A stretch of 64,000 nucleotides of DNA from Candidatus Omnitrophota bacterium (GTDB taxonomy: Bacteria > Omnitrophota > Gorgyraeia > Gygaellales > Profunditerraquicolaceae): positions 128,343 through 192,342 of the forward strand of contig JBAZTA010000004.1 of the NCBI GenBank assembly GCA_041662125.1, written 5' to 3'. Positions 46,639 through 63,687 of this stretch are shown piece by piece (the stretch's first letter is position 1; every line of letters begins with the position of its first letter). The notes beneath the pieces were generated by a model. It searched no databases. It worked only from the letters and a program-made list of their open reading frames with translations, and had not been told where the DNA came from. The position numbers and the translations under genes were made by a program.

Positions 46639-46666
46639 AGATTTCTCTTGCCTTTTAAGAAAAAGT

Positions 46667-46945: not shown

Positions 46946-46961
46946 TCAGAAGGAGGATAGT

Positions 46962-47879
46962 ATGCGATTCTGGAGTGTCGTGTTAGTAGGAGTTGTCTTT
47001 ATGTTCTCAGGGATTATTGGGTGCGATAAAATAAGCGATATGATGAAGCCTAAGAAGAAAGAAGTTGTATCGGCTCTCGTTGTTACCCCGGCAGTAAAGG
47101 GTACGGTCATTGCCAAGGTAAATAATCTGCCGCTTACATTGGAAGAATTGAACCAGGAAGTTGACGCGGAAAATTCCATGGTTAATAAAGACAGGCCTGA
47201 AGATAAGATAACGACGCGTGACCAGAAGATTAAATATTTGAAGGAGCGTTTGATCCGCCGCGTGCTTCTTTTCCAGGAGGCAAAGAACCGGGGGTTAGAG
47301 AGAAAAGAAGAGATCCTTCAGGCGTTGGAGAAAACCAAGCAGGATCTTTTAGTGGTGGAACTGGTGCGCCAGGAAGCAGAGAAGGTTGATGTGGCATCAT
47401 CTGAAATAGAGGAATATTACAATACGTATCAAGCGCAGTTGAAAGATCCTGAAGAAAGGCGTATCCGGGAAATAGGCGTTAGCTCTGAGCAGGAAGCTAA
47501 AGAAGTATTGATCCAGTCATTGCAGGGAACTGATTTTGCCGCAATGGCCCGTGAGAGGTCAAAATTAGCCAGCGCAAAAGACGGCGGCGACCTGGGTTAT
47601 CTTAAACCAAATGTTAAATCTGCCCAATTTAACGCGATGGCGTTCTCAAGTTCGCTTGAAAAAGGACAGACAAGCAATATTTTTAAGAATTCAGACGGGT
47701 ACTATTATATAGTTAAAATAGAAGATATCCGCGGCGGGGCACAGAAGACCTTGACTGAAATGTGGGAGGATATTAAACGGGGGCTAACTTTTTTAAAGCA
47801 GGAGAGAAAGATCGAAGACCTGATCAGTAAGCTTTCCGGCTCCGCAAAAATAGAGATTTACGAAGGGGAAGTTAAATAG
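46962..47879 (+). CDS. Lipoprotein peptidyl-prolyl cis-trans isomerase (parvulin-type, SurA/PrsA-like)
   Basis: RBS AGGAGG; lipobox FSGIIGC; SurA-like helical N-domain; PpiC domain (GGDLGYLKPN..., GYYYIVKIEDIRGG). Confidence 0.75.
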   Translation: MRFWSVVLVGVVFMFSGIIGCDKISDMMKPKKKEVVSALVVTPAVKGTVIAKVNNLPLTLEELNQEVDAENSMVNKDRPEDKITTRDQKIKYLKERLIRRVLLFQEAKNRGLERKEEILQALEKTKQDLLVVELVRQEAEKVDVASSEIEEYYNTYQAQLKDPEERRIREIGVSSEQEAKEVLIQSLQGTDFAAMARERSKLASAKDGGDLGYLKPNVKSAQFNAMAFSSSLEKGQTSNIFKNSDGYYYIVKIEDIRGGAQKTLTEMWEDIKRGLTFLKQERKIEDLISKLSGSAKIEIYEGEVK

Positions 47880-47924
47880 GTCTTTTTATTGAGTGATACG
47901 CGGTTAATCAAAAAGGCTCCTTAG

Positions 47925-48812
47925 ATGCAAAGACAGAAAATCATGCTTATTGCAGGTATCGTGTTATGCGGTTTGACAGCGTTCATGGTCAAGGTATTCA
48001 TTGACCAGCAGAAACAGGAAGTTATTGAAAAAGCCAAAAAGCAATTGCAGGAAATCCAGGCAAATTCTTCTACGGTATTAGTGGCAAGTGTTGATATTCC
48101 CCGGGGATCGCCTATCAACGCGGACTCTCTGGAAACAACTATTATCCCGAATCAATTTATTCAGCCGAATGCGGTGAACGCGTTAAGCAGGATAGAGGGG
48201 ATGATCACTATGGCGCCGATCGCAAGAGGAGAGCAGGTTACCTTAAGTAAGCTTATGCAGTCCCGCCAAGCTGATGGCCTGGCAGACACCACTCCGATAG
48301 GCAAAAGGGCGATTACTATTACCGTGGATAATATTTCTTCTTTAGCGGGCATGCTGAAACCAGGTGATTATGTGGATGTTATTGCCGCTTTAGCCTTGCC
48401 CATGCAGGGCCCTAATGGAACCGTTGCTTCGCAGCCAGCGGTAATTCCTCTTTTCCAAAATATCCAAGTTCTGGCTGTAGGTCAGGAATTAACCTCAAAG
48501 ACCAAAGGGGAATCGCGGTACAAAAAAGAAGAAACTAAAGAAGCATCGCCCTTGATCACGCTTGCGCTTACTCCGCAGGAATCAAATCTTATTGCTTTTG
48601 TGCAGGAACAGGGCAAGATCCGTTTGGTAGTTCGGTCTCCCGCGGATTCTCAGGTACAGCCGTTTCAGCCGGTCGGCTGGGACGCGCTTATGCAATATAT
48701 TATGCCGCAGCTGGGAGAGCCAAAAGTGGAGGAAGTGAAAGTCCCGGATGAGTATGTAGAGATATACCGCGGTTTAAATAAAGAAACAGTAATTTTGCCT
48801 AAAGAAAATTAA
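47925..48812 (+). CDS. cpaB: Flp pilus assembly protein CpaB/RcpC
   Basis: N-terminal TM anchor; SAF-like domain; position at the head of the tad operon. Confidence 0.75.
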   Translation: MQRQKIMLIAGIVLCGLTAFMVKVFIDQQKQEVIEKAKKQLQEIQANSSTVLVASVDIPRGSPINADSLETTIIPNQFIQPNAVNALSRIEGMITMAPIARGEQVTLSKLMQSRQADGLADTTPIGKRAITITVDNISSLAGMLKPGDYVDVIAALALPMQGPNGTVASQPAVIPLFQNIQVLAVGQELTSKTKGESRYKKEETKEASPLITLALTPQESNLIAFVQEQGKIRLVVRSPADSQVQPFQPVGWDALMQYIMPQLGEPKVEEVKVPDEYVEIYRGLNKETVILPKEN

Positions 48813-48817
48813 AACAT

Positions 48818-50458
48818 ATGAAAAAATATCTTGCTGTATTGCTGGTTGCCGGGGGATTTTTGTTATTCGCGCGGGCTCACGCGTTAAGCGCGAGAGACTC
48901 TGAGCTTCGTATGTATGTGGGGGAGGTCCAGATCATTCAGGTTAATAATCCAACCCGTGTTATGATCGGTAATCCGAATGTGATCGATGTCAGCAATGTG
49001 GGCAGAAAAGAAATGACAGTCAGCGCCAAAGCTCCCGGTAAAACAACGCTTGTGTATTGGGATACCCTCGGGGAACAGTCATTGAATATAAAAGTACTCG
49101 CGGAGGATTTAGACGCAATTAAAGCCCGGGTTGATAATTTGATCGCGACACTGGGGTATCAGGAAGTCGTCAGCCAGGCTGAAGAAGAAGAAGGGAAAGT
49201 TTACCTTTTGGGGAGATTAAAAACATCTGCTGAGAGAGAAAGGCTTCTGAGCGGGTTAGGTTCTTTGAAGGATAAGGTCAATGACCTCATTGTTGTCCTG
49301 GAAGAATCTGCGGTCGTTGAGATCGATGTTCAGGTGCTTGAATTGAACAAGGATGCCAGTAAAAGCCTCGGCTTTACCTGGCCGAGCGCCATCAATCTTC
49401 TTGAACAGGGCTCGCCTGGGTTGAACGATAGCGGCACAAAATTCTCGACGCTCTTTAAGGTTTTAAATTTACAGAGAGGTACTGTTGATGGCGCGGACCC
49501 GTTTACTTTTAAATTATCAGCATTAGTTCAGGAAGGAAAAGCCCGTATTCTTTCCCGCCCAAAGCTTTCTTGTCAAAGCGGCAAAGAAGCAGAAATGCTT
49601 GTCGGAGGGGAAAAGCCGGTGTTTAGTAGTTCAGTTGTATCCGGAGGAGGGACCAGCACGAGTGTTTCCTATAAGGAATACGGGATCAGGTTAAACATTA
49701 AACCTACGGTAACAGCAAAAGAGCAGATCAAGGTCGGCCTCAAGGTGGAGGTAAGTGAAGTTGGGACAGCTGAGACGATCGGCGCTGAGAATGCTCCTTC
49801 GGCAAAAGCCTATCCGCTCCTTAAACGCACTGCTTCAACTGAGCTTTTTCTTGATAACGGCCAGACACTTGCTATCGGAGGATTGATCAAGCAAAAGACC
49901 GAAACAGATGTAAGGAAAGTTGCCGGACTTGGGGATATTCCTGTCTTAGGGATGTTTTTCCGTAATAAAAGTTATAAAGAAGGCGGCGGGCAGGGGGAGC
50001 GGGGTGATTCGGAATTATTCATTACTTTAACGCCTACTATTGTTTCCCGGGATATGGGGGTAGCGCCAGTAATTAAGCACGTTGAAGCTCCATCGGCAGG
50101 GAAGGTAATAGATCTTGAAGCAGAAAAGCCTTCTGCTGAAACGCCGGTACGGGTAGAAAAAGCGCCTGACCCGTTAGATCATTACGCTCGTGTTGTTAAA
50201 GAGCGTATTATGAGCAGCCTGACATATCCGGAAGTGGCCAAATCCGCTGGTTTTCAGGGTACGGTAAAATTAAGCCTGAAACTTACTTATACAGGGCAGC
50301 TTTTAGAGGCGGTACTCAAGAAGTCTTCGGGTTATCAGGTCCTTGATGATCATGCTTTATCGGTGGCAAAAACTATCGCGTATTATCCGCCTTTTCCTCC
50401 CTCGATTGGCCTGCAGGAAATTTGGATAGACGTCCCAATCGGCTATCATTTAGAGTAA
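48818..50458 (+). CDS. cpaC: Tad secretin CpaC/RcpA with a C-terminal TonB_C-like domain fusion
   Basis: Signal peptide and secretin domain (...RPKLSCQSGKEAEMLVGGEKPV..., GDIPVLGMFFRN). The C-terminal ~90 aa (YPEVAKSAGFQGTVKLSLKLTYTGQLLEAVLKKSSGYQVLDDHALSVAKTIAYYPPFPP) match the TonB C-terminal domain consensus. Confidence 0.85.
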   Translation: MKKYLAVLLVAGGFLLFARAHALSARDSELRMYVGEVQIIQVNNPTRVMIGNPNVIDVSNVGRKEMTVSAKAPGKTTLVYWDTLGEQSLNIKVLAEDLDAIKARVDNLIATLGYQEVVSQAEEEEGKVYLLGRLKTSAERERLLSGLGSLKDKVNDLIVVLEESAVVEIDVQVLELNKDASKSLGFTWPSAINLLEQGSPGLNDSGTKFSTLFKVLNLQRGTVDGADPFTFKLSALVQEGKARILSRPKLSCQSGKEAEMLVGGEKPVFSSSVVSGGGTSTSVSYKEYGIRLNIKPTVTAKEQIKVGLKVEVSEVGTAETIGAENAPSAKAYPLLKRTASTELFLDNGQTLAIGGLIKQKTETDVRKVAGLGDIPVLGMFFRNKSYKEGGGQGERGDSELFITLTPTIVSRDMGVAPVIKHVEAPSAGKVIDLEAEKPSAETPVRVEKAPDPLDHYARVVKERIMSSLTYPEVAKSAGFQGTVKLSLKLTYTGQLLEAVLKKSSGYQVLDDHALSVAKTIAYYPPFPPSIGLQEIWIDVPIGYHLE

Positions 50459-50472
50459 GATGATACGATATT

Positions 50473-52635
<2,163 letters not shown>

Positions 52636-52670
52636 GTATAATCAATATATAGTAAGATTCAAGAGTAATA

Positions 52671-52710
52671 TTCAAGACCCGGCCTTATCTGTACAAGACC
52701 GGGTCTTGAA
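52671..52710. repeat. 12-bp perfect inverted repeat TTCAAGACCCGG / CCGGGTCTTGAA containing the recurring AAGACCGGGTCTT palindrome
   Basis: Located right after the cpaEF stop; same motif as at 7991-8043; no U-tract follows. Confidence 0.6.
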
Positions 52711-52721
52711 ATATAACATAA

Positions 52722-53090
52722 ATGCTGATAAAGAACGAAACAAAAAATACGGTCTTAGCTGATAAAGCGGTTATAGCTAATACGCTTTTAAAGCGTATGA
52801 AAGGCTTGCTTGGTGAAAAAGAATTAGCAAGAGGGAAAGCGCTTGTTTTAGAGCCCTGTAATGCAATACATTGTTTTTTTATGCGTTTTACCATAGATGT
52901 TTTGTTTCTTGGGAAAGATAATCGTGTGGTAAAGGCCCTTCCTGAAATAAAACCGTTTCAGTTCTCTAAGATTTATTGGGGAGCTGTTAAAGTAATTGAA
53001 TTGCCTGCCAATACAATCAAGTCTACTCAAACTTCCGATGGTGATATTATCACCTTTGTAAATGTCCAATCTGGTTCTACCCCTTTCTAA
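52722..53090 (+). CDS. DUF192 (COG1430) family protein
   Basis: ...KGLLGEKELARGKALVLEPCNAIHCFFMRFTIDVLFLGKDNRVV matches the DUF192 GLM-R...GMLF...FWMKNT..LDIIF pattern. Confidence 0.55.
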   Translation: MLIKNETKNTVLADKAVIANTLLKRMKGLLGEKELARGKALVLEPCNAIHCFFMRFTIDVLFLGKDNRVVKALPEIKPFQFSKIYWGAVKVIELPANTIKSTQTSDGDIITFVNVQSGSTPF

Positions 53091-53186
53091 TCATTAGGAT
53101 TTGACAAATCAAATTCGCTATGGTATATTATTAATGAGCTTAATAATGTCCAATCTGGTTAATCATTAGTATTCTTAGGAGATAAA

Positions 53187-54767
53187 ATGGGAGTAATTTA
53201 TAAATTACATCAGGATGTGACCGATTATATTTTTGTTATTAAGAAAAAAGACCCATTATTGAGTTGTCGCAAGATTTCTGTGATCATTTCTGAGAAATTT
53301 AAAAGTAAGGTTTCAAAATCAAGTATTAATGCGGTGCTCAAACAAGCTCGTTTGAGTATGCCGGTTGGAAGAAGGCGCAAGCAAAAAAGAAACATTTTTG
53401 AGGCTGTTGGCCTTGGGGCATTTTTCCTCAAAGCCGCTGATTGCCTTACCAATGTCAGCGTCGGGTTCAATGAAATAGTGGCTCAAAAATTGGGTGTTTC
53501 GCTGCAAGATATCGCAGGTAAGACCGACTTTTTGCTTTATAAACAGCTTTTTAGCGATCCACAAAGCCGGGAAACCTTGAATCAGGTCTCTGGTTTAAAA
53601 GCCTTTGTTGGCAGTCGAATTGAAGTGAAGGAAATGGATTCTTATCTTGAAGAAATAAAACAGGTTATGACCTTACCTGCTGTTCTTTGCCAATTAATAA
53701 CGAAATCTTTTCAAGAAATCCGTTGTGTTAAGATCAGATTGATAGATGGTACGTACTTTTTGCTTGATGGCAGGTTATCTACTATTTGGCAATCGGCTGA
53801 GAATATACCTTTCGATTTCTCTGTAACATATAATGAGATAAAGAGTTATATAAAAAATATTATTGCAGGAAAACCGGTCGTTCTATTTATGGGCCCTGAA
53901 AAAAAGCAAGCAATGGGAGAGTTTTTCCGGTTTCTTATGAATTTATATTCGCAAGGTAAAAATATCTCGAATTTAGCTCTTTGTAATAATAGCTCTCAGG
54001 AGCTAGAGGTTATTGATTTTGCTGGTTTGCATGATAAAAAAATGCAGGTTATTTTTGGATTATGGCCTTGGCAATACGGGCAATACCGTAAGATCACATA
54101 TCTTGAAAAATTTAAATTTTATCGTTTCGAACAAATTAAGAAAGATTTTTATATTGCGGATGTTAATGTTGAATTTACGCAACCGATTGTAAACAATAGC
54201 CTTATATTAAGAGGTTGCGCTTTGAAAAACAGTTTAAATGAAAAGGTCAGGCTGGTGATCTTAACTAATGCGTCTGTTTCAGAGTTATCTTCCTCTGATC
54301 TTGTGGCTGCTTACTTGGAACGTTGGCCGAATTTAGAAGAAACGTATGAAGATTATAACCGCAAGAATGAGCTCTTTTTTTATACTGATGCGGCAAAATC
54401 CACCTTTTCTTTAGGGCTTTTAAATGTTAATTTAGAGCCTTCCTTGGGGCTGGATATGCTTTTTAGTTACTATTTGCAGGCGCTTGATTTATACGCGAAA
54501 TGGCGTTTTTTCCCGCAGGGATATAGAAAAAAAGATTTCTCGACGATGAATGAACTGTTTTATCAGTTGCCTTGCCAATTGAAAATAACCAAAAATAAGC
54601 TTTTATTAACATTTATTGTGCCTGCCGAGTACCCTTTTTTGAAAGATCTTTCCTATGCTTGCTGCCGCGTCAATGAAAGGGGCATAGTCTTAAAAAACGC
54701 CTACCGGCTTTTTATGGAAGTATTGCCGCGTTTAATTGATAACCCTATCGCCCTAAATAAATTATAA
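53187..54767 (+). CDS. Hypothetical protein (526 aa) embedded in the tad locus
   Basis: Long ORF with no recognised motif and no signal peptide. Confidence 0.5.
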   Translation: MGVIYKLHQDVTDYIFVIKKKDPLLSCRKISVIISEKFKSKVSKSSINAVLKQARLSMPVGRRRKQKRNIFEAVGLGAFFLKAADCLTNVSVGFNEIVAQKLGVSLQDIAGKTDFLLYKQLFSDPQSRETLNQVSGLKAFVGSRIEVKEMDSYLEEIKQVMTLPAVLCQLITKSFQEIRCVKIRLIDGTYFLLDGRLSTIWQSAENIPFDFSVTYNEIKSYIKNIIAGKPVVLFMGPEKKQAMGEFFRFLMNLYSQGKNISNLALCNNSSQELEVIDFAGLHDKKMQVIFGLWPWQYGQYRKITYLEKFKFYRFEQIKKDFYIADVNVEFTQPIVNNSLILRGCALKNSLNEKVRLVILTNASVSELSSSDLVAAYLERWPNLEETYEDYNRKNELFFYTDAAKSTFSLGLLNVNLEPSLGLDMLFSYYLQALDLYAKWRFFPQGYRKKDFSTMNELFYQLPCQLKITKNKLLLTFIVPAEYPFLKDLSYACCRVNERGIVLKNAYRLFMEVLPRLIDNPIALNKL

Positions 54768-54801
54768 ATCGAAAACGCTTGCAAAATTACCGCAAATCCC
54801 C

Positions 54802-54830
54802 TTGACATTGCTATGGGTAAATGCTATATT
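54802..54830 (+). promoter_or_regulatory. Perfect-consensus sigma70 promoter (TTGACA - 17 nt - TATATT) driving the pilin gene array
   Basis: TTGACA at 54802-54807 and TATATT at 54825-54830, followed by a ~200-nt leader before the first pilin ATG at 55037. Confidence 0.55.
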
Positions 54831-55036
54831 TTGAGTGTCACAGCTACGGCAGCGAAAAGGCAATTCTGCTAGGAGGTAGCAGATGCGCAAAGCCACGGGA
54901 CGAAGTAATGCTCGCCGGAAATATGTGTTTTTTTCCTTTGTTTATTGCATCGGGTCACATGCGAGTACGTTAACCGGGTTACCGAAAGCCGTTAGGGATA
55001 TTTGGTAATGCGGTTTTTTTATTTATGGAGTTTATA

Positions 55037-55240
55037 ATGAGTTTTGAAAAGACTTTTAGAAGTAAGAAGGCACAGGCAGTCGTCGAATATATTGTTATAT
55101 TTGTTGTTTTAACGTTCGCGATCCTTTTGGCTTTTGGAGGGCTTAATTTAGGCGACTCCCGCGGTAATAATTCTAAGGTGAATATGAAATCTACATTTGA
55201 CACGGTAGTGGATAATGCCGTGGCGCAAATAAAGGATTAA
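55037..55240 (+). CDS. flp: Flp-family prepilin (class III signal peptide)
   Basis: KKAQAVVEYIVIFVVLTF matches the Flp motif G/A-xxxx-EY followed by a hydrophobic helix. Confidence 0.65.
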   Translation: MSFEKTFRSKKAQAVVEYIVIFVVLTFAILLAFGGLNLGDSRGNNSKVNMKSTFDTVVDNAVAQIKD

Positions 55241-55241
55241 G

Positions 55242-55553
55242 ATGAATAAAAAAGGAGTTATAACGATCGAGTTTTGTATGTTGATTATCCTGTGCGCGGT
55301 ATCAGGCATTTGTATGATGGGGTATTTAAAAGGCGCTATCGCAGGCGGCTGGCATGCCAACGCGGATAGCTTTTCTGATGACCAATATGATGATGCAAGC
55401 AGCACGCTTAATTATACTAAAACTGAAGGGCCGACTGTCACTATTACTGATGTTATGACGGCTAAGACAGCAGGTGGAACTTCTCTCTCTGAAGGCGCGA
55501 ATGATGATGGGATGATTATTTACAGCAATTGGGGGAGCGCAGGTGCTTACTAA
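55242..55553 (+). CDS. TadE-like pseudopilin (103 aa)
   Basis: KKGVITIEFCMLIILCAV TadE-like N-terminal motif. Confidence 0.6.
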   Translation: MNKKGVITIEFCMLIILCAVSGICMMGYLKGAIAGGWHANADSFSDDQYDDASSTLNYTKTEGPTVTITDVMTAKTAGGTSLSEGANDDGMIIYSNWGSAGAY

Positions 55554-55734
55554 AAGAAAAAAAATTATTTTTAACAAAACTTTTTTCCGAGGGCAAAGTG
55601 TGTTAGAATATGCTTTGTTGATCATTACTGTTGCAGCTGTATTTATCGCCATGAACCTGTATATTCGCAGGTCTGTAAATGCCAGGCTGCATAATATGGA
55701 AATTGAGATCAGTCCGCCTATAGCGGTTAATTAA
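55543..55734 (+). CDS. flp: Flp-family prepilin (63 aa)
   Basis: FFRGQSVLEYALLIITVAAVFIA. Confidence 0.7.
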   Translation: MLTKRKKIIFNKTFFRGQSVLEYALLIITVAAVFIAMNLYIRRSVNARLHNMEIEISPPIAVN

Positions 55735-55772
55735 CCGGGGCGGATTTAACAAAAAACGAGGAGGTGAGAAAG

Positions 55773-55958
55773 ATGATGGTGAGCAAGAAAAAAGGTCAGT
55801 CAACCTTGGAGTATGTATTGATTTTAACAGCGGTTATCGCGGGGATAATATTTGCGACTACTCAGTTTATTCAGCCGCGGGTGCAGTCTTCCGTGAACCA
55901 TGTTACGAATCAGATGAACGCTATGGTAAGCAGGATTTCTTTTCCTAATGGGACCTAA
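55773..55958 (+). CDS. flp: Flp-family prepilin (61 aa)
   Basis: RBS GAGGAGGTG; KKKGQSTLEYVLILTAVIAGIIFA. Confidence 0.75.
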   Translation: MMVSKKKGQSTLEYVLILTAVIAGIIFATTQFIQPRVQSSVNHVTNQMNAMVSRISFPNGT

Positions 55959-55997
55959 GATCGACGCAGGTGTATATTTTATAAGGAGGTGGAAGCA

Positions 55998-56333
55998 ATG
56001 ACTCGAAAATGGAGGAAGAGGGCGCAAACAACTGCCGAGTACGCGATATTGATCGCGCTGGTTATCGGCGCAGTGGTTGCGATGCAAATTTATGTAAAAA
56101 GAGGGATACAGGGCCGGATTAAAGAAACGGTGGATTTTGTCGGGACAAACGGTACTGTAGGCAATAGTAATTTTAGTTTTACGACCAATCAGTATGAGCC
56201 TTATTATATTTGTTCGACATCCAATAGTAATCAGAATATGGTTGAGAACCAAAATTATCAAGCAAACGGCAATGTTGCTAGAAATACAACGGCAAATTCT
56301 AGAGTTAATCGTACGCAAACGATGGGATGGTAA
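55998..56333 (+). CDS. flp: Flp-family prepilin with long Asn/Thr/Ser-rich C-terminal tail (111 aa), type A
   Basis: RBS AAGGAGG; KRAQTTAEYAILIALVIGAVVAMQIYVKRG. Paralog of 56742-57080. Confidence 0.75.
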   Translation: MTRKWRKRAQTTAEYAILIALVIGAVVAMQIYVKRGIQGRIKETVDFVGTNGTVGNSNFSFTTNQYEPYYICSTSNSNQNMVENQNYQANGNVARNTTANSRVNRTQTMGW

Positions 56334-56357
56334 TCTGAAAGCGAGGTGAATAAGACA

Positions 56358-56705
56358 ATGTTTATTCGTTTAACGAAACGAGCTCAAAGCACCTTGGAAT
56401 ACGCGGTGATCATCGCGGTTGTGGTAGGGGCGCTCATTGCGATGCAGGTATATGTAAAAAGGGGTTTACAGGGAAGGCTGCGTCAGGCAAGCGATGATAT
56501 CGGCGACCAATTCTCTCCCGGTGTTACAACAACCAGCTATACTACGGTAAGTAATGTCACTACTCGTGAATGGGTTAATAAGGCTATAAGCGGCGCGACT
56601 AACATGACGGGGACAAAAACAGACAGTACTCAGAATCAAAGACGAAACGGTACTGAAAACGTCGCTGCTCAAAATAGTGAATGGTGGTTTACAAACGGTT
56701 CATAA
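56358..56705 (+). CDS. flp: Flp-family prepilin with long C-terminal tail (115 aa), type B
   Basis: TKRAQSTLEYAVIIAVVVGALIAMQVYVKRG. Paralog of 57103-57444 and 57467-57796. Confidence 0.75.
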   Translation: MFIRLTKRAQSTLEYAVIIAVVVGALIAMQVYVKRGLQGRLRQASDDIGDQFSPGVTTTSYTTVSNVTTREWVNKAISGATNMTGTKTDSTQNQRRNGTENVAAQNSEWWFTNGS

Positions 56706-56741
56706 GTGCGTTTTGGCAGAAGACATAAGGAGGTGGAAGCA

Positions 56742-57080
56742 ATGACGCGAAAATGGAAGAAGAAAGCACAAACAACTGCTGAATACGCGGTATTGATCGC
56801 GTTGGTTATCGGAGCAGTGGTTACGATGCAAATTTATGTAAAAAGAGGCATGCAAAACAGGATAAAAAATGTGGTTGACCATACTGGAGCGGGTAGTTTA
56901 CTGGTTGGCAATCGGACTTTTACTCTTTCCGGCAATCAGTATGAGCCTTATTATGCTAATACTCATGCTAATACTCAGCAAAGGTCGGGAGAAGACGCTC
57001 GAATGCAGTATGGAGGCGCTGTTAATAGGATATCGAATTCACAGTCCAACGCAATAAGAAATGGTACGACGGGTTTTTAA
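56742..57080 (+). CDS. flp: Flp-family prepilin, type A paralog (112 aa)
   Basis: The first ~45 codons are near-identical at nucleotide level to 55998-56130; the C-terminal tail diverges. Confidence 0.75.
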   Translation: MTRKWKKKAQTTAEYAVLIALVIGAVVTMQIYVKRGMQNRIKNVVDHTGAGSLLVGNRTFTLSGNQYEPYYANTHANTQQRSGEDARMQYGGAVNRISNSQSNAIRNGTTGF

Positions 57081-57102
57081 TGTAAAGGGGGTGAATAAGA
57101 CC

Positions 57103-57444
57103 ATGTTTATCCGTTTAACGAAACGAGCTCAAAGCACCTTGGAATACGCGGTGATCATCGCGGTTGTGGTAGGGGCGCTCATTGCGATGCAGGTATATGT
57201 AAAAAGGGGTTTACAGGGAAGGCTGCGTCAGGCAACTGATGATGTTGGAGATCAATTTTCTCCGGGTAACACCAATTACCATTATGTAACAAATAGTTAT
57301 GTTGACAGTGATGAAAGATCTGCCGGCGGGAGTTATTTTTCTAATACGATCCCTACAGCAACGACCATAAGCAACCAAAGCCAGAACCGCACGGGCAATG
57401 AAAGAGTTTTGAATCAAACTAATGAACACTGGATAGCGCCTTAA
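57103..57444 (+). CDS. flp: Flp-family prepilin, type B paralog (113 aa)
   Basis: The first ~55 codons are identical to 56358-56520 at nucleotide level; the tail diverges. Confidence 0.75.
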   Translation: MFIRLTKRAQSTLEYAVIIAVVVGALIAMQVYVKRGLQGRLRQATDDVGDQFSPGNTNYHYVTNSYVDSDERSAGGSYFSNTIPTATTISNQSQNRTGNERVLNQTNEHWIAP

Positions 57445-57466
57445 TAATGGCTGACTCGAAGGGAAT

Positions 57467-57796
57467 ATGCTGATACAATTACGCAACACCAGAGGACAGA
57501 GTATAATGGAATATGCGGTCCTTTTAAGCATTGTGGTCGGGGCTTTAGTTGCCATGCAGGTTTACGTTAAGCGCGGCTTGCAGGGAAGAGTCAGGGATTT
57601 AGCTGACCAGATCAGTCCCACGCAGTACGAAGCAGGCCAGACCGAATCACAATATATGACAGTCCAGAGCGGGACCGTTTCGGAAAGTTATAACCAGGGT
57701 ATTTCCCGCCGCTATCAAGACGGAACGAATAATTCGACCGCGGAAACGATGGTGAAAAATGGATCTGAAACAACATATCCAGAAGAAGCGGATTAA
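57467..57796 (+). CDS. flp: Flp-family prepilin, type B-like (109 aa)
   Basis: NTRGQSIMEYAVLLSIVVGALVAMQVYVKRGLQGR. Confidence 0.7.
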   Translation: MLIQLRNTRGQSIMEYAVLLSIVVGALVAMQVYVKRGLQGRVRDLADQISPTQYEAGQTESQYMTVQSGTVSESYNQGISRRYQDGTNNSTAETMVKNGSETTYPEEAD

Positions 57797-58535
57797 AGGG
57801 CAGGCAACAACAGAACTGGCGGTTGCCGGCGTCATCATTATTATGATGCTGGGGTATTTGATGCAGCAGGGGTTTGTGTATAACAGCCGCCAGGCGCTTG
57901 AGATGTATACGTTCCGCCGCGCCCTGCAGTTAACTAAGAGTTCGGAACGGGGAGTAAACCTTACCGTAACCCGCGACCTGATCGTCCCTTCGTTTTTCTC
58001 AAGCATTGGCCGCCAGCGTATTCAAGCCGCCAGTTCCGTGGAAATAAACCCCTGGATCATCTGGATGGCAAAAGAAGATGAGCCGCAGGATATCGGCACC
58101 TACCAGGTCCTTCAACTCGATGAAAAAATGATCAGGGATAACCAGTATGTATTGATCCCTCCTACATTAGCCAAAATCAAACAGGCAGATGACGAAGAAG
58201 ACCCTGAATGGATGTGGGTCCCTTCGCCGGTACGCGAAATTGACCCGCAAACAGCCCTTACCTTACCGGCTAAAACCGCGGCTTATTCTTATACAACAAA
58301 CATTAGTGAAAACAGGACTACTAAAGAGAAAGAAACTACTAAGACATTGACCAGCCAGGATATTATGCAGAGAGGGATAACGTTTCAAACTGCTGCTAAA
58401 ATGAAAGCGGATTATCTCAAAGACCCTGATATTGCTAGCGCGGAGGTGAATGGAGGGAGTATTCCGGACTCTGCGATTATTACGATCGATGAAACAGTGA
58501 CAAAAACAAAGAACGTAAGGACACCGTATGATTAA
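57759..58535 (+). CDS. TadE/TadG-like pseudopilin (258 aa)
   Basis: KRIKGQATTELAVAGVIIIMMLGY N-terminus followed by a large soluble domain. Confidence 0.65.
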   Translation: MDLKQHIQKKRIKGQATTELAVAGVIIIMMLGYLMQQGFVYNSRQALEMYTFRRALQLTKSSERGVNLTVTRDLIVPSFFSSIGRQRIQAASSVEINPWIIWMAKEDEPQDIGTYQVLQLDEKMIRDNQYVLIPPTLAKIKQADDEEDPEWMWVPSPVREIDPQTALTLPAKTAAYSYTTNISENRTTKEKETTKTLTSQDIMQRGITFQTAAKMKADYLKDPDIASAEVNGGSIPDSAIITIDETVTKTKNVRTPYD

Positions 58536-58547
58536 TAAATTAAAGGA

Positions 58548-60077
58548 GTGTCTATGAACCGCAAGAATAAATCACAGGTGATATTAGAATTTGTGCTGGT
58601 GATTGTAACGCTGGCAATTCTTGCGGTTGCCTCAATGCGTCTTTTTTCAAACTTTAATCTTAATATGATTAATCGTATCGATAAATTCAAGGAAAGCCGG
58701 GTTATCGCGGTCAATACCCCCGGCGCAGCCCCTATTTCTCCGGTTGCTTTCCTTGATTACTCTCCGTATAGAGATATTACTGTGCCCGGAGCGGGGACGA
58801 TCCTTCCACCTTTTATCCCGGGAGAATATGATGATGCGCGCTTTGATGAAGCTAACCGTTTGTTTGAAGAGTCAAATGACCTTATACTCGTAACCATCCC
58901 TTATTTTGCAAGCCGGGCGTATGCATCTTTAGGGGGGGCTAATAATTCTGCCGCCTATATTGAGGCTAATATAACTGAAAGCGTTATGCGCTCAGCTTTA
59001 GCCGATTGCCAAGCTATGGAATCACCCCGGCAACAGGCATATGATGACTTCTTTGAAGATATGAGTGGCGTTGACGCTGACCATGATACTTTTGTTGGAG
59101 GGATCGGTTTATTACAGCAGGTTTTGAGCAATCCTAAAATACCCGGTTTATATGACCCGAATCCGGAGAATAATCCGGCGAAATATGGGTATACTGCCGC
59201 AGACACGGCAGCTTTAGCCGCGCTTAAGGCTAAGAATATTGAAAATCGTGAACAACTTCAAGACATCATTACGAGCATTAAAAGTACTAAGTCTGCTATG
59301 GATAATTTATTGGTTACTACAACAAAACCGTATGGCCTTATACGGCCGGAAATAAATCAATCTATATCGCATCTTGATAATGCTACTACTGATGATGCGA
59401 TAGATCAATGGCAGCGTTGGCAATTCGCGATAAATACGGTTCGTCCACAATGTTTTTGTGGACCACCTCCGGGGACAAGTTGTCATGAGTGTTGTGATGG
59501 TGAATATTGTGTCGGTTGTTCGTATGACAATTGCTATCAAGAGTATGATGATCCTGATACCAAGGTTCATGAGGCCGAGATAATTTATGCTTCAGCGGCA
59601 GCGGTTGAAAGTGGGTATTTAGCGTCGTTTGTTGGGCATATTCAAAGAACAAGTAATTACAGCGATATTTGGCTCGATGCGACTTCTGCAAAAAACGCCT
59701 TAAAACGTATTATTGATTATGCCGGGGAAATCAGCGTTGTGCCTGCGGAAATGGAAAATAATTTGCGTAATAAAGTTGATGAATTAGACGGTTTTGTTAC
59801 CAGTGCTCCTTCCAGGAATGATATTATCCGCGCGGTTACTGCTTGCGATGATATGCTTGTTATTATAAAGCAAGTTGAGATAGAAGATGCAAAAATAATA
59901 TATACGCCCCCGGCTAAAGCCCCGGACTATACCTATTTAAAGAACCTTATCACTCAAATTAAAACCGCGCTTTCCAGTGCCCTGATCAATTGGGAAGATG
60001 CTTCATCGCGCGATACGTATATTGCCAGCGCGCGGAAAAAGATAGATCGTTTGGTAGAGATAATAGCATTACGGTAA
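58548..60077 (+). CDS. Large TadE/G-like pseudopilin (509 aa) with Cys-rich motif; candidate tip adhesin
   Basis: Pilin-like N-terminus NKSQVILEFVLVIVTLAILAVA; central FCGPPPGTSCHECCDGEYCVGCSYDNCY (8 Cys in 28 aa). Confidence 0.6.
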   Translation: MSMNRKNKSQVILEFVLVIVTLAILAVASMRLFSNFNLNMINRIDKFKESRVIAVNTPGAAPISPVAFLDYSPYRDITVPGAGTILPPFIPGEYDDARFDEANRLFEESNDLILVTIPYFASRAYASLGGANNSAAYIEANITESVMRSALADCQAMESPRQQAYDDFFEDMSGVDADHDTFVGGIGLLQQVLSNPKIPGLYDPNPENNPAKYGYTAADTAALAALKAKNIENREQLQDIITSIKSTKSAMDNLLVTTTKPYGLIRPEINQSISHLDNATTDDAIDQWQRWQFAINTVRPQCFCGPPPGTSCHECCDGEYCVGCSYDNCYQEYDDPDTKVHEAEIIYASAAAVESGYLASFVGHIQRTSNYSDIWLDATSAKNALKRIIDYAGEISVVPAEMENNLRNKVDELDGFVTSAPSRNDIIRAVTACDDMLVIIKQVEIEDAKIIYTPPAKAPDYTYLKNLITQIKTALSSALINWEDASSRDTYIASARKKIDRLVEIIALR

Positions 60078-60090
60078 AGGGGAAAAAAGT

Positions 60091-61146
60091 ATGATGCGAT
60101 TTTTGAGGAAGGAAAATGGCCAGGTGTTCCCCTTTATGATCATCATCGTGGTTATCATTATACTGGCCATTGTTGCGACCATGCTCCTGGGAGAAGTGGG
60201 GTTTAATCGTATCCGTTTAAGCAATGTTATTGATTCGGCTGTCCTTTCTCCGACATCAGGGTTTTGCCGCTCGCTTAATCAGATAGTCAAGATCAGTTTC
60301 GGCGATGGAGGGTTACTTCAGAAATATATCGCCCTGCAGGTTTTTTTCCTGAAGCCTTTTAAGCCGGCAATTTGCCCTTGCGACGGGATTCCCTATCCGT
60401 TTACCTGGCAGTTCATTTGGAGTCCGTTTATTATGCCTTTTTACATACAAACTTTAATTGAGATCTTTCAGCTTTATGAATCAGCTGAAGATATTGCGGA
60501 AAAAGCCCCTGAAGATCTACGCAAAGGTATTCTTGACCGCGCAATGGGAGGGGCTTTGATCGATGAGGCTAAGCCTTTTAGATCGAGCGAAGTGACCCGT
60601 GATTCTAACGGCAAGATCACTGCTTTAGATTATAATGCGTATTTGGATCGCGATTCTCATTTTGATGAAGTATACCGTACACAGAAATCAAGCCTCTGGT
60701 CGGGGGATCGTGCGACCTATGCCTGGAATAAAAAATACTGGAAGAATAAATCAGCGGGCACATTCTATAAACCCGGGGTTTTAGAGACGAGCTGTGGGTC
60801 GTGCAGCGATAGCGACTACGGCAGTTATTTAGATGTTAATTTCGTTAATGTTCCTCGCAACGTATCAATTAGCGCGCAGTTCATGCCGTTGTTTTATCTT
60901 TGGCAAAAAGTTATCCCCGGATATCCGAAATGTTATTGTATTGTTTTACCCGGGTTTGCTTTTGATCCCTATGCCTGGATCAGTAACATAAATATCGATA
61001 GCAAATCGTATGGCCTTAACGTGCGTAAGAAACTTGATTATCAGGATTTGACTTTTTTTGGCAGGCAGCCGATTATTACCCACAAGAACCAGGTAAGAAT
61101 TCACGGCTCGGTACAAACAGGGTATGATTTTGGATTGGAGAGTTAA
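60091..61146 (+). CDS. TadG-like pilus assembly protein/pseudopilin (351 aa)
   Basis: KENGQVFPFMIIIVVIIILAIVATMLL Tad_N-like N-terminus; Cys pairs in the C-terminal domain. Confidence 0.6.
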   Translation: MMRFLRKENGQVFPFMIIIVVIIILAIVATMLLGEVGFNRIRLSNVIDSAVLSPTSGFCRSLNQIVKISFGDGGLLQKYIALQVFFLKPFKPAICPCDGIPYPFTWQFIWSPFIMPFYIQTLIEIFQLYESAEDIAEKAPEDLRKGILDRAMGGALIDEAKPFRSSEVTRDSNGKITALDYNAYLDRDSHFDEVYRTQKSSLWSGDRATYAWNKKYWKNKSAGTFYKPGVLETSCGSCSDSDYGSYLDVNFVNVPRNVSISAQFMPLFYLWQKVIPGYPKCYCIVLPGFAFDPYAWISNINIDSKSYGLNVRKKLDYQDLTFFGRQPIITHKNQVRIHGSVQTGYDFGLES

Positions 61147-61149
61147 GAT

Positions 61150-61938
61150 ATGGGAAGGTTTTTGGCAGTAACCATAGTAATGTTTTTTTTCTTGGCGCGC
61201 CACGCTTGCGCGGAAAACCGTGAACTGCGTAATATCCCTTTACCGGACAACTCTGAGGTTGTCGCGCTGGATACGCCGTTCCAGCTTAATGACCGTCAGG
61301 GAAATTTGAGCCGGCTGCGTTCATTTAAAAAACCGCAGGAAATCATTGATTTTTATCAGGGCTATTTTGTAAAGAATGGGTGGGAGTTTGTTTCCTATAA
61401 AGAGGAATGGCGGACACTTTTTTTGAAGAAAGGCGATGAGAATTTGTATGTGCAGGTCAATGATCATGGGGATGCGCTGCCTGCGGATGTGTATATCGCG
61501 ATGAGCCGCCAGGACCTGGCGGTTTGCCCGCAGATGAAAGATGTTTATGCGCAGGAACAGATCGCTCCTGATGTCCTGGGGAAAGACTTTCCCGATATCA
61601 TGCGTTATCCCGGAAGCAAGCGCCGAGTCAATATGTTCCCGGATGCCAATAAAGGAATGGTGGTTTATGAGGCGCAGGCTGAGGTTGCCGAGGCAGCCGC
61701 GTTTTTTTATAATACCCTGAAGGCGCAAGGATGGGATGATAATCCGGCGTTTACTAAAGGTTTCCAGAAGCAGAAGAATCCTGATCTCAAAGATACCAAG
61801 ATCATGTTTTTTGAAAAAAATCTGGAAACGGTGATCATTAATATTTATCGCGTCTCTGAATCGAAAGGGAAGGCGCGCGTCTTAATCTCTATTTTAAAGA
61901 ATATGACCGGAGATGTTGCTATGCCGGCAATGCAGTAA
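61150..61938 (+). CDS. Secreted hypothetical protein (262 aa) within the tad locus
   Basis: Signal peptide MGRFLAVTIVMFFFLARHACA. Confidence 0.5.
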   Translation: MGRFLAVTIVMFFFLARHACAENRELRNIPLPDNSEVVALDTPFQLNDRQGNLSRLRSFKKPQEIIDFYQGYFVKNGWEFVSYKEEWRTLFLKKGDENLYVQVNDHGDALPADVYIAMSRQDLAVCPQMKDVYAQEQIAPDVLGKDFPDIMRYPGSKRRVNMFPDANKGMVVYEAQAEVAEAAAFFYNTLKAQGWDDNPAFTKGFQKQKNPDLKDTKIMFFEKNLETVIINIYRVSESKGKARVLISILKNMTGDVAMPAMQ

Positions 61939-61951
61939 GGAGGAGTAGGAA

Positions 61952-62800
61952 ATGTTTTTTCTTATTATTCTTTTAATCATCGCTTCGATCATGCTGATCA
62001 TTTTCGGGACCATGCCGACATTCTTCGATAAGATGAAGATCTGGAGTGAGAACAAAGAAAAGAATATGGAAATAGAAATGGACCGTCTTTTTTATTATGA
62101 TAAGAGCCCTAAACAGATCATGCGCCTTTATTTTATCCTGCCGCCTATTTTAGGGGCAGCGGGTTTTATCTTCACCCAGAATATGATTTTTGCCGGTATA
62201 GGGGTTTTCTTAGGTTTATTGATCCCCAATGTCGTCTTAAAATTCAGGGATTCGCTGCGCCGGATGAAATTCAACAGCCAGATACTTGACTCGATCCTGA
62301 TCCTTTCCTCTTCTTTAAAAGGAGGGTTGTCTCTTTTACAGGCATTTGAAGTTTTAGTGGATGAGATCCCGCCGCCGATGAGCCAGGAGATGGGGCTGGT
62401 CGTGCGCGAGAATAAGATGGGTGTTTCTATGGAAGAGAGCCTGAGGCGTTTAAGTAAACGAATGACGATGGATGAATTGACCCTTGTCGTTAACTCTATC
62501 CTGGTGGCCCGGGAGACCGGCGGTGACTTGACCAAAGTCTTTAGCCGCCTGACGACCACGATACGGGATAACAATAAATTGAAAGATAATGTCAGGACAT
62601 TAACGCTTCAGGGAAGGCTGCAGGGTATTATCATGTCGGTTATCCCTTTTGTGTTTATCTGGTGGGTTATTACCTTTAACCGCGAGCATTTTAATATTAT
62701 GCTTCAGAGCGATACCGGCAGAGGCCTCTTGGTGCTGGCACTTGTTTTGCAGTCCATTGGCATGGTGTTGATAAAAAGATTTAGCAGCGTAAAGATTTAG
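61952..62800 (+). CDS. tadB: Flp pilus assembly inner-membrane platform protein TadB (T2SSF domain)
   Basis: N-terminal TM helix, T2SSF domain (LLQAFEVLVDEIPPP...LTLVVNSILVARETGGDL) and C-terminal TM helices. Confidence 0.85.
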   Translation: MFFLIILLIIASIMLIIFGTMPTFFDKMKIWSENKEKNMEIEMDRLFYYDKSPKQIMRLYFILPPILGAAGFIFTQNMIFAGIGVFLGLLIPNVVLKFRDSLRRMKFNSQILDSILILSSSLKGGLSLLQAFEVLVDEIPPPMSQEMGLVVRENKMGVSMEESLRRLSKRMTMDELTLVVNSILVARETGGDLTKVFSRLTTTIRDNNKLKDNVRTLTLQGRLQGIIMSVIPFVFIWWVITFNREHFNIMLQSDTGRGLLVLALVLQSIGMVLIKRFSSVKI

Positions 62801-62808
62801 GAGCCGCA

Positions 62809-63687
62809 ATGATCGAAATGATCTATATATGTGTTATCGCAGGGATGGGCCTTATATTCTTTGGTATATTCGGGGTGCCCAGTACAACGATCAGAAGGGT
62901 CAGGCTTCCTGAGGCGGCCAATAAGGAAAAATCCATTAGAATGCACTCTTTCCTTTATTATGTTTTTCCTTTTACCAAGAAATTATTAGAGAGGCTCAGG
63001 CTTCAGGAAAAGACCAAGAATAGGGTGGATGCTGCTCACGTCAAGCTTTTAGCGGAAGAATTCTTTAATCTCAAGATCCTTTCGGCGATTTTGTTCGGAT
63101 CATTGAGTTTTTTCTTTACGAATAAATTCGAGCCGGGAATGGTTACAATTTCTGCTGCGATTGGGTTTATCATTCCGGATATATGGCTTAATAAGAAGAT
63201 CCACCAGCGTAAGAATAGTATTGTCCGGCTTTTGCCTGAAACCGTTGACCTGCTGGGCCTCTGCGTTGAGGCAGGCCTTGATTTTGCCACGGCAGTCAAA
63301 TGGATCATTGAGAAAACCGCGATGAACCCGATGGTGGAAGAGTTAGCCTTTGTTTTAGAGGAGATAAAGTGGGGTAAGCCCCGCAGCCAGGCATTAAAAG
63401 ATATGTCTAAACGGCTGAATATTATGGAAGTCAGTTCTTTTGTGCATACGCTGGTGCAGGCTGAGCGTATGGGAACTCCGGTTGCTGAGGCCTTTGCCAT
63501 ACTTTCTGAAGATGTCAGGCTGCAGCGTTTCAGGAGAGGCGAACGTATTGCTTTGCAGGCTCCGATGAAGATACTTATTCCGCTTATTTTTTGTATTCTG
63601 CCGGTTATTGCCATTATTATCGGCGGGCCTATATACTTGCAGTTTATGGATGGCGGATTACTTAACAGTGTAGGGGTAGGCAAATAA
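62809..63687 (+). CDS. tadC: Flp pilus assembly platform protein TadC (T2SSF domain)
   Basis: T2SSF domain (LPETVDLLGLCVEAGLDFATAV...FVHTLVQAERMGTPVAEAF) with flanking TM helices. Confidence 0.85.
   Translation: MIEMIYICVIAGMGLIFFGIFGVPSTTIRRVRLPEAANKEKSIRMHSFLYYVFPFTKKLLERLRLQEKTKNRVDAAHVKLLAEEFFNLKILSAILFGSLSFFFTNKFEPGMVTISAAIGFIIPDIWLNKKIHQRKNSIVRLLPETVDLLGLCVEAGLDFATAVKWIIEKTAMNPMVEELAFVLEEIKWGKPRSQALKDMSKRLNIMEVSSFVHTLVQAERMGTPVAEAFAILSEDVRLQRFRRGERIALQAPMKILIPLIFCILPVIAIIIGGPIYLQFMDGGLLNSVGVGK

Follow-up and report, generated by a model that had tools for sequence, protein, structure and literature searches.

What does it mean when two neighboring pairs of pilin genes begin almost identically but end differently? 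The question is raised by a complete Tad/Flp (type IVc) pilus locus in the window, the 64,000-nt stretch that was analyzed, from the MAG of an uncultured Candidatus Omnitrophota bacterium. A ~745-bp unit with two Flp-like pilin genes occurs there twice in tandem (A1-B1-A2-B2) and is followed by a fifth paralogue, C. A first-pass annotation took this for a recent duplication in which exposed tails are exchanged on a constant assembly domain. The account that is quite probably right is a different one: an old A-B tandem duplication, with diverged tails, gene-converted 5' blocks, and co-assembled pilins. This is ordinary birth and divergence of pilin paralogues with partial concerted evolution, not an antigenic-variation switch.

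The duplicated unit is part of an array of nine pilin genes, four short (p1-p4) and five long (A1, B1, A2, B2, and C), located among genes for Tad machinery:

47925-48812: RcpC
48818-50458: secretin
50473-52635: T2SSE ATPase fused to a ParA/TadZ-like domain (TadZ-TadA fusion)
54802-54830, plus strand: candidate sigma-70-like promoter upstream of the first pilin gene, TTGACA-17-TATATT with TG, 11/12 consensus matches
55025-55240, 55242-55553, 55543-55734, and 55773-55958, plus strand: short Flp-like pilins p1-p4, with leader, (G/A)-x-x-x-x-E-(Y/F), and hydrophobic stretch
55998-56333, plus strand: pilin A1, 111 aa, with orthologues in L001, L006, and L007
56358-56705, plus strand: pilin B1, 115 aa (WDL87_07915; database protein P0001 is 100% identical)
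56742-57080, plus strand: pilin A2, 112 aa (WDL87_07920)
57103-57444, plus strand: pilin B2, 113 aa (WDL87_07925; P0009)
57467-57796, plus strand: pilin C, 109 aa, a B-like paralogue of greater age, used as the control without conversion, with the AMQVYVKRGLQGR motif as in B
57759-58535, plus strand: TadE-like pseudopilin, 258 aa, sub-threshold TadE match
57759 and 60091: weak TadE and Tad matches
61952-62800 and 62809-63687: T2SSF proteins (TadB, TadC)

The A, B, and C pilins are therefore found in a tad-locus context, with a TadA ATPase, a TadB/TadC platform, a secretin, RcpC, and TadE/G-like genes. No match to Peptidase_A24 (the TadV/CpaA prepilin peptidase) was found among the subset of window ORFs scanned, and this gene may lie outside the window. 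The TadE-like pseudopilin, with 85%–88% identity in L006 and L007, was used as the anchor for locating related loci, and p1-p4 are present in unchanged order in L001, L003, L006, and L007. The pilin genes appear to form a single operon, because no terminator-like site was found on the plus strand between 54830 and 57800, and the five long pilins probably share a transcript with the four short genes. A promoter and terminator scan gave no convincing internal promoter or terminator; promoter-like sites numbered 14, against 8.2 ± 2.8 in shuffled sequences (~two standard deviations above), and terminator-like sites were at the shuffle level.

Are the long proteins Flp pilins? All three types have a processing motif and ~20 hydrophobic residues (KRA↓QTTAEYA in A, KRA↓QSTLEYA in B, and TRG↓QSIMEYA in C, with the arrow at the processing site), although position −1 is Ala, not Gly, in A and B. 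The family comprises 722 homologues, and conservation in it is highest in the N-terminal block, with Q10, T12, L13, E14, Y15, Y32, R35, G36, and G39 invariant across 61 homologues. Profile matches are weak: no pilin is above threshold for Pfam PF04964 (Flp_Fap), for which only B2 gives a match (13.2 bits vs a cut-off of 32.2), and matches to PF04021 (Class_IIIsignal) reach 16–20 bits, with A1 at 20.1 bits, below the cut-off of 23.7. No NCBIfam pilin family matched the pilins, the only matches being chance-level ones to unrelated families. Size also separates the two groups, in that p1-p4 fit the very small mature Flp pilin (about 40–60 residues, without a C-terminal domain) but mature A, B, and C, at ~100 residues, do not. 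An AF2 model of B1 has a helix (residues 12–51) and a 45-residue beta-hairpin (57–102), at moderate confidence (pLDDT 73, pTM 0.31). A sequence search of the PDB gave no match at E up to 10. When the B1 model was compared with PDB structures in Foldseek, no match had an E below 0.09, and the best ones were long beta-hairpin stems of pore-forming toxins, a likeness set aside as geometric resemblance only.

The first-pass annotation was correct that a two-pilin unit is duplicated in tandem. Two direct-repeat blocks, with a spacing of about 745 bp, each start at a ribosome-binding site:

55981-56105 and 56725-56849, plus strand: A 5' homogenized block, copies 1 and 2, from the ribosome-binding site through codon 36, 113/125 nt identical
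56344-56492 and 57089-57237, plus strand: B 5' homogenized block, copies 1 and 2, from the ribosome-binding site through codon 45, 144/149 nt identical

At their wider extent, the A blocks (55981-56134 vs 56725-56878) are 85% identical and the B blocks (56336-56522 vs 57081-57267) 93% identical. The B blocks include an exact run of 124 nt (56367-56490 = 57112-57235), and an exact repeat of that length within 4 kb is far beyond chance. The near-identity described earlier was overstated for the A block (83%–90%), and the identity claimed for ~55 codons of the B pilins shrinks, at the protein level, to 44 of the first 45. Past codon ~36 in A and codon ~45 in B, DNA identity drops to about 50%; the A boundary was placed at codon 36 from the site-pattern map, since a 45-codon boundary mixed converted and unconverted codons. 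Divergence in the self-comparison is not uniform, and the sharp conserved/variable boundary is real. The tails, said to “differ completely,” remain alignable: 29/75 residues are shared in A and 26/68 in B (38%–39% amino-acid identity), the motifs NQYEPYY, DDxGDQFSPG, and QNRxGxExV..Q..E.W are held in common, and identity reaches 80% over a 51-nt patch (56157-56207 vs 56904-56954). N-x-S/T sequons are present in the tails.

How did the 5' blocks come to be so similar? Comparison across genomes, limited for this purpose to the four with DNA (the window, w, and three more, r, s, and t, from among L001, L006, and L007, with r and t being close relatives), reveals that the blocks cluster by genome and not by paralogue. 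For B, 5' identity is 97.8% between wB1 and wB2 and 96.2%–96.3% between rB1 and rB2, compared with 86%–89% for w vs r and 86%–92% for w vs r, s, and t. In the four genomes, the B 5' block has 0 sites fixed between paralogues and 11 that covary by genome; the A 5' block has 1 and 8, respectively. Bootstrap values for the 5' blocks are 99% for (wB1,wB2) and 93% for (wA1,wA2). In the w/r quartet for B, concerted and orthology sites number 15 and 0 in the 5' block vs 3 and 53 downstream (Fisher p = 9e-13), and the same contrast between 5' block and downstream sequence in A gives p = 4e-6. This is the pattern of gene conversion; its enzymology we infer. The sequences themselves are corroborated by other contigs, with L028 being 100% identical to window positions 54965-56396 and L013 100% identical to L006, from independent assemblies.

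Conversion may not be the only form of exchange at these blocks. Direct repeats like these are well-known sites of unequal crossing-over, which, operating alongside conversion, would lose or gain whole A-B units, create chimeric pilins, and make copy number vary in populations. We consider this extension rather unlikely. It draws on two short contigs, L026 and L027, that would represent an allele formed by deletion or recombination (p4 - hybrid A - B2 - C). Two assemblies (JGI 3300014208 and ENA ERZ27249449) contain the hybrid protein, P0121, and the junction falls inside the A 5' block, with all 9 mismatches to the window at L021 positions 49–87 and the other ~1240 nt 100% window-like. However, each arm matches a different strain at 100% identity, L001 on the left and the window strain on the right, as in a chimera of co-occurring strains. 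Both hybrid contigs stop at a single base (window 58017), meaning that they are probably not independent data, and the hybrid arrangement is in no long contig. Furthermore, L029, also from the ENA assembly, flips from 100% L001-like to 100% window-like exactly 140 nt (k−1 of k141) from its end, and the case for L021, L026, and L027 as a real recombination junction was downgraded after this strain switch was seen. The hybrid A1/A2 junction is probably an assembly chimera. Were it real, a doubtful prospect, the 5' blocks would double as crossover points at which A-B units are added or deleted, possibly between co-occurring strains, and members of a natural population of a host-dependent nanobacterium would differ in their set of tails.

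A second alternative dispenses with recombination: after an old duplication, the 5' ends would have been kept alike by purifying selection alone, exerted either on the peptide of leader and helix or on the 5' mRNA. The conservation of the N-terminal block across the family, with its nine invariant residues, and a 5' omega of 0.02–0.09 are in keeping with such selection. However, constraint on the peptide leaves silent sites unprotected. Among codons for identical amino acids in B1 and B2, silent differences occur at 1/42 in the 5' block vs 14/25 in the tail (p = 5.5e-7), whereas B1 and C, which share the motif, differ synonymously at 19/27. A fixed nucleotide constraint also fails, given the 11 (B) and 8 (A) genome-specific sites common to both paralogues. 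Of 8 paralogue pairs, 7 show a significant silent-site contrast. The exception is wA1/wA2 (7/29 vs 14/29, p = 0.1), and 5' identity between wA1 and wA2 is 83%, no closer than between wA1 and its orthologues (82%–84%). On these two grounds, A conversion in the window lineage is old or patchy. Within-genome clustering of the 5' blocks thus refutes selection as the sole cause for B and counts against it less firmly for A in the window lineage; taken over the whole locus, selection alone is very unlikely.

Could the tails be moving instead? In the manner of pilE/pilS, a recent duplication would allow exposed tails to be swapped onto an unchanging assembly domain, and the pilus would vary antigenically or functionally. 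The sharp boundary between a conserved N-terminus and a variable C-terminus is genuine, recombination does act at the locus, and the hybrid gene in L026 and L027 joins A1-type upstream sequence and 5' end to an A2 tail. Nevertheless, the idea is hardly credible, for several reasons. First, the duplication is old, not recent as the first-pass annotation had it: the A1-B1-A2-B2-C order is present as DNA in four diverged genomes (the window genome, L001, L006, and L007), and the tails of paralogues have a pS of 0.60 in A and of 0.85, a saturated value, in B. Pooled dS between orthologous pilin genes of these genomes reaches about 0.9–1.1. A fifth contig, from JGI 3300075153, has the same order in gene calls only, and single A-B(-C) arrays are found in L003, L011, L012, L017-L020, L023, and L030. 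The pN between A1 and A2 tails is 0.46, and against the single-copy A of L003 it is 0.41–0.42, such that the duplication may either predate the L003 split, with later loss, or have been followed by fast divergence. Second, the tails keep their own position in all four genomes. Tail DNA identity is 77% for wB1-rB1 and for wB2-rB2 vs 50% for wB1-wB2; the split between paralogues has 100% bootstrap support for A and for B (four genomes, split-based bootstraps); and the A and B tails each have 39 sites fixed between paralogues and 1 covarying by genome. The pooled tail omega of 0.10–0.17 indicates purifying selection, whereas antigenic diversification predicts the reverse. Every tail is a stable, selectively conserved orthologue that has not been swapped. 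The proposal of recombinational pilin variation therefore survives only in part: the footprint of recombination is in the 5' blocks, while the tails are strictly orthologous. Third, the architecture does not match a silent-cassette system. None of A1, B1, A2, and B2 is a 5'-truncated silent cassette: the four genes are full-length, point the same way, and have their own AGGAGG/GGTGA Shine-Dalgarno sequence and ATG. No G4 motif (no run of three G3+ tracts) was found on either strand in 54001-58600, nor any relevant long homopolymer; a search of 54700-58600 for inverted repeats of at least 14 nt found none in the pilin array and only one, in the TadE-like gene; and the ORFs scanned within the locus and next to it (44368-63687) included no site-specific recombinase. 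Fourth, the assembly with the hybrid contigs contains the other strain switch, precisely k−1 = 140 nt from a contig end. Assembly artefact is a separate alternative, and it is scarcely conceivable that the 5' identity results from near-identical repeats being collapsed or cross-polished in MAG assembly: the 124-nt exact B repeat is just under common maximum k-mer sizes and one assembly has mosaic contigs at the locus, but the pattern recurs in four genomes that different projects assembled separately, with lineage-specific substitutions that differ per genome and are common to both paralogues, a Logan contig exactly matches the window over 54965-56396, and collapse would break contigs and not give two in-frame copies with distinct tails.

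The history of an old duplication with gene conversion of the 5' ends runs as follows. Related Omnitrophota have one A, one B, and usually one C, all “long” Flp-like pilins. In one clade, a tandem duplication of the A-B pair produced the order A1-B1-A2-B2-C. The 3' two-thirds of the copies have since diverged to about 38% amino-acid identity. The 5' third, comprising the ribosome-binding site, leader peptide, and whole N-terminal hydrophobic helix, has been overwritten repeatedly, presumably by non-reciprocal homologous recombination between the tandem copies, so that the 5' blocks evolve in concert within each genome. A conversion tract stops where similarity, and with it the recombination substrate, ends, which explains the sharp conserved/variable boundary. 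The pilins would be processed at (A/G)↓Q-S/T-x-x-E-Y and would enter the pilus core through the N-terminal helix that they share. The tails, modelled in B1 as a beta-hairpin, may face outward and provide several fixed surface chemistries that are not switchable.

What are the implications? First, the sharp boundary in this locus reflects concerted evolution of an assembly domain, not a tail-swapping system. Second, this Omnitrophota Tad pilus is encoded with an unusually large and conserved array of four short and three to five long pilins. Third, an extra A-B pair with conserved tails, fixed in one clade, points to added stable surface functions and not to switching of the immune-evasion kind. 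Fourth, homogenized blocks of ~125–150 nt break or scramble short-read assemblies, and apparent recombinant alleles call for read-level confirmation.

Multiple flp paralogues in a tad locus are known from Haemophilus ducreyi (flp1-flp3). Other cases are the differentially regulated type IVb/Flp pilin genes of Bdellovibrio (PMC5430801) and the T4cP pilins of Sinorhizobium (PMC10934763). As in those loci, the pilin genes described here are in tandem at the start of a tad operon or within it, the leader, G/A-XXXX-EY motif, and hydrophobic helix are common to the paralogues while the C-terminal ends differ, and the machinery is of the TadA, TadB/C, RcpA/C, and TadE/F/G-like type. Unlike those loci, there are nine pilin genes, and partial gene conversion can be demonstrated in a duplicated unit of two genes; and unlike the usual Flp, A, B, and C are about twice as long, have a ~65-residue polar tail, and fall below the Pfam Flp_Fap threshold. 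Literature searches turned up neither a description of the pilin array nor any account of Tad-system pilins evolving in concert. Within the phylum, PMC10066038 proposes that the Tad complex of Velamenicoccus archaeovorus and other Velamenicoccia serves attachment to host or prey cells; the machinery is of the same type. That work analyzes TadB/C, RcpA, and TadZ, and its Tad passages do not describe the pilin array, its duplication, or concerted evolution.

Comparison with other recombining gene families places the locus more precisely. Like the invertible pilin systems, it has alternative C-terminal segments behind a shared N-terminal segment, but its repeats are direct and the array has no inverted repeat of at least 14 nt; Moraxella tfpQ/tfpI with Piv, and plasmid shufflons, depend on inverted repeats and a site-specific recombinase. 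Like Neisseria pilE/pilS, it has pilins whose N-terminal assembly domain is constant and whose exposed part varies, and non-reciprocal recombination between linked copies. However, there are no promoterless 5'-truncated cassettes and no G4, the tails are under purifying selection, and the direction is reversed: it is the constant part that is converted and the variable part that is stable. Campylobacter flaA/flaB, a pair of filament-subunit genes, and Salmonella tufA/tufB exemplify concerted evolution of tandem genes by partial gene conversion. As in those pairs, paralogues are closer to one another than to orthologues over part of their length, silent sites are homogenized, and segment phylogenies are discordant. 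Here, by contrast, the tract covers only about 125–150 nt at the 5' end, in two gene pairs of one unit, and the rest of each pilin gene has wholly escaped conversion.

The pilin array lies within a complete Tad/Flp system. Around it are genes for RcpC, a secretin, a TadZ-like domain fused to the TadA ATPase, TadE-like and TadG-like proteins, and two T2SSF (TadB/TadC) proteins. The features of the locus and its neighborhood are as follows.

8465-11809, upstream of the Tad locus: subtilase (Peptidase_S8), 1114 aa
13318-17925, upstream of the Tad locus: ORF of 1535 aa without a Pfam match
18106-18597, upstream of the Tad locus: IS200-like Y1 transposase
48818-50458: Tad secretin, with Secretin and T2SS-T3SS_pil_N domains and a C-terminal TonB_C domain
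50473-52635: TadZ-TadA fusion, 720 aa, with a ParA/MinD-type (TadZ-like) domain and a TadA/T2SSE ATPase
53187-54767: 526-aa protein without a Pfam match, directly ahead of the pilin array
54802-54830: promoter-like site ahead of the array
55025-55958: four shorter pilin-like ORFs (p1-p4) ahead of A1
55998-56333: pilin A1
56358-56705: pilin B1, identical to WDL87_07915
56742-57080: pilin A2
57103-57444: pilin B2, identical to WDL87_07925
57467-57796: pilin C, a fifth, B-like paralogue

The secretin-TonB_C fusion is also present in the related contig L003, the TadZ-TadA fusion is 717-720 aa long in relatives, and homologues of the 526-aa protein (513-526 aa) occupy the same position in L003, L006 (CAZPNW010000085), L007 (JBAZKL010000003) and a JGI contig, 3300075153. 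The promoter-like site ahead of the array, with no terminator-like site on the + strand between it and position 57800, would fit co-transcription of the pilin genes.

In all nine pilin-like ORFs the leader is short and basic, the motif (A/G)-x-x-x-x-E-(Y/F) is present, and ~20 residues form a hydrophobic stretch. Their Pfam matches (Class_IIIsignal and Flp_Fap) are all sub-threshold, and NCBIfam gave no pilin-family match. Database homologues of the family number 722 at E <= 1e-3, the named ones nearly all from Omnitrophota; WDL87_07915 and WDL87_07925 belong to a Candidatus Omnitrophota MAG. Each long-pilin tail (A1, B1, A2, B2, C; 56120-57796) carries 2-4 N-x-S/T sequons, and a PMT_2/ArnT-like glycosyltransferase is encoded ~16 kb upstream (38232-39884). 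Glycosylation of the tails is possible. The last 38 nt of C (57759-57796) are shared with the beginning of the TadE-like gene, an overlap kept in L001 (JGI 3300037810), L003, L006 and L007.

The first-pass annotation described a tandem repeat of a two-pilin unit with conserved 5′ parts, an observation that is largely right. In a self-comparison of 55700-58000, two diagonals stand out, at offsets 744 and 745, with 85% identity for 55981-56134 versus 56725-56878 and 93% for 56336-56522 versus 57081-57267, plus a weaker 51-nt patch at offset 747. Unbroken identity reaches 124 nt at most (56367-56490 = 57112-57235); the ~745-bp repeat is therefore real, far beyond chance. In a global alignment of the two units, both conserved blocks start at the Shine-Dalgarno sequence and extend over roughly codons 1-36 in gene A and 1-45 in gene B, past which DNA identity is ~50%. 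The A block, which had been called near-identical, has a core that is only 90% identical (113/125 nt). Nor are the tails unrelated: A1 and A2 share 29 of 75 tail residues and B1 and B2 share 26 of 68, with common motifs. Modeled in AlphaFold2 from 61 homologues, B1 has a helix (12-51) followed by a long beta-hairpin (57-102) at moderate confidence (pLDDT 73, pTM 0.31). On this model, the conserved block would comprise the leader together with the entire N-terminal helix, and the variable part would form the hairpin. Neither a sequence search nor a fold search of the PDB gave a significant match for B1.

How old is the duplication? The A1-B1-A2-B2-C order occurs between the same neighbors in three other genomes (L001, L006 and L007) and, from gene calls only, on the JGI 3300075153 contig. 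More distant Omnitrophota (L003, L011, L012, L017-L020, L023 and L030) have one A gene and one B gene, in most cases together with C. Within the window, the paralogue tails differ at a pS of 0.60 (A1/A2) and 0.85 (B1/B2; saturated), and between the window and the L001, L006 and L007 orthologues the pooled tail dS is ~0.9-1.1. A gene order common to diverged genomes, together with these distances, indicates that the A-B duplication is older than the radiation of its clade; the proposal that it is recent is wrong. In the distant relative L023 (4749-5600), long poly(Gly-Thr) runs (GTGTGT...) lie inside the A tail and nearly at the end of the B tail, an extreme low-complexity variant. A ~6-kb segment of a 2.31-Mb scaffold labelled Dehalococcoidia (L002/L008, JBGLNK010000001.1) matches L003 in gene calls and encoded pilin sequences; flanked by unrelated metabolic genes and lacking the rest of the Tad locus, it probably reflects scaffold chimerism or contamination of the MAG.

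If slow evolution alone had kept the 5′ blocks alike, their grouping would be expected to follow the paralogues, as in the tails; it does not. The B tails are 77% identical between orthologues of the window and another of these genomes, versus 50% between the window's B1 and B2. By contrast, the B 5′ blocks are 97.8% identical within the window and 96.2-96.3% within the other genome, versus 86-89% between the two (86-92% for the window against all three others). In the same two-genome quartet, informative sites in B between the RBS and roughly codon 46 support within-genome grouping over orthology by 15 to 0, versus 3 to 53 downstream (Fisher p = 9e-13); for A, the counts are 6 to 0 in the 5′ block and 4 to 51 in the rest (p = 4e-6). 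Across the four genomes, split-based NJ bootstraps support the paralogue split at 100% in both tails and 0-1% in the 5′ blocks, where the window's A1 and A2 group at 93% and its B1 and B2 at 99%. Sites fixed between paralogues number 1 in the A block, 0 in the B block and 39 in each tail, and sites identical within each genome and variable among genomes number 8, 11 and 1, respectively.

Protein constraint as the cause of the 5′ identity is removed by a silent-site control restricted to codons encoding the same amino acid in both copies: B1 and B2 differ at 1/42 such codons in the 5′ block and 14/25 in the tail (p = 5.5e-7), and B1 and C, with the same AMQVYVKRGLQGR helix motif, differ at 19/27. 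The contrast is significant in 7 of 8 paralogue pairs, the exception being the window's A1/A2 (p = 0.1); for that pair, conversion must be more ancient or more patchy. Assembly collapse is ruled out by the recurrence of the pattern in four separately assembled genomes, and by independent contigs that exactly reproduce part of the window array (L028) and of the L006 array (L013). The best explanation of these sequence patterns is an old tandem duplication of the A-B pair followed by repeated gene conversion that stayed within the 5′ block, whose similarity suffices for homologous recombination; in this account the tails escaped conversion and became four distinct orthologous lineages. A 22-nt stretch encoding NQYEPYY is exactly identical between the window's A1 and A2 tails (56186-56207 and 56933-56954), and its two copies in L001 carry several differences, both silent and replacement; it may be a micro-conversion patch within otherwise diverged tails.

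A hybrid protein, P0121, is encoded on two short contigs, L027 (= L021; JGI 3300014208; 1330 bp) and L026 (ENA ERZ27249449; 1458 bp). The left arm of these contigs comprises the p4 end, intergenic sequence of the A1 type and ~45-60 nt from the start of an A gene, and over 228 nt (L026 1-228) it matches L001 at 100% identity; from about L021 position 88, identity is 100% to the window's A2-B2-C and the TadE-like gene start. Such a structure might reflect deletion of a unit, or recombination between strains, at a junction within the converted block. However, each arm matches a different strain perfectly, L026 and L027 stop at the same base, and L029, from the same k141 assembly (ERZ27249449), switches from 100% L001 identity (1-140) to 100% identity to the window strain exactly 140 nt (k-1) from the contig end. 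The hybrid is probably an assembly chimera rather than a real allele. Two related strains co-occur in the ERZ27249449 sample, and its assembly is mosaic at the pilin locus.

The first-pass annotation also proposed antigenic or functional variation by tail exchange, as in type IV pilin silent-cassette systems, which is not supported. All pilin copies are complete, in the same orientation and with their own RBS; the array contains no 5′-truncated silent cassettes and no inverted repeats, and a locus scan found neither a G4 motif nor a noteworthy long homopolymer. Tail positions are invariant across the four genomes, and orthologous tails have a pooled omega of 0.10-0.17, indicating purifying selection, so the tails appear functional and stable, not diversifying. 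The arrangement is the reverse of pilE/pilS: here, the recombination footprint lies in the gene's constant portion. Tandem genes for filament subunits are known to undergo partial concerted evolution, Campylobacter flaA/flaB being an example. Tad loci with several flp paralogues are also well known (PMC5430801, PMC10934763), and PMC10066038 presents Tad complexes as a hallmark of many Omnitrophota. A literature search found no earlier description of the A1-B1-A2-B2-C pilin array. What is specific to the Omnitrophota array is its long-tailed class of Flp-like pilins, its duplicated two-gene unit and its clean map of conversion tracts.
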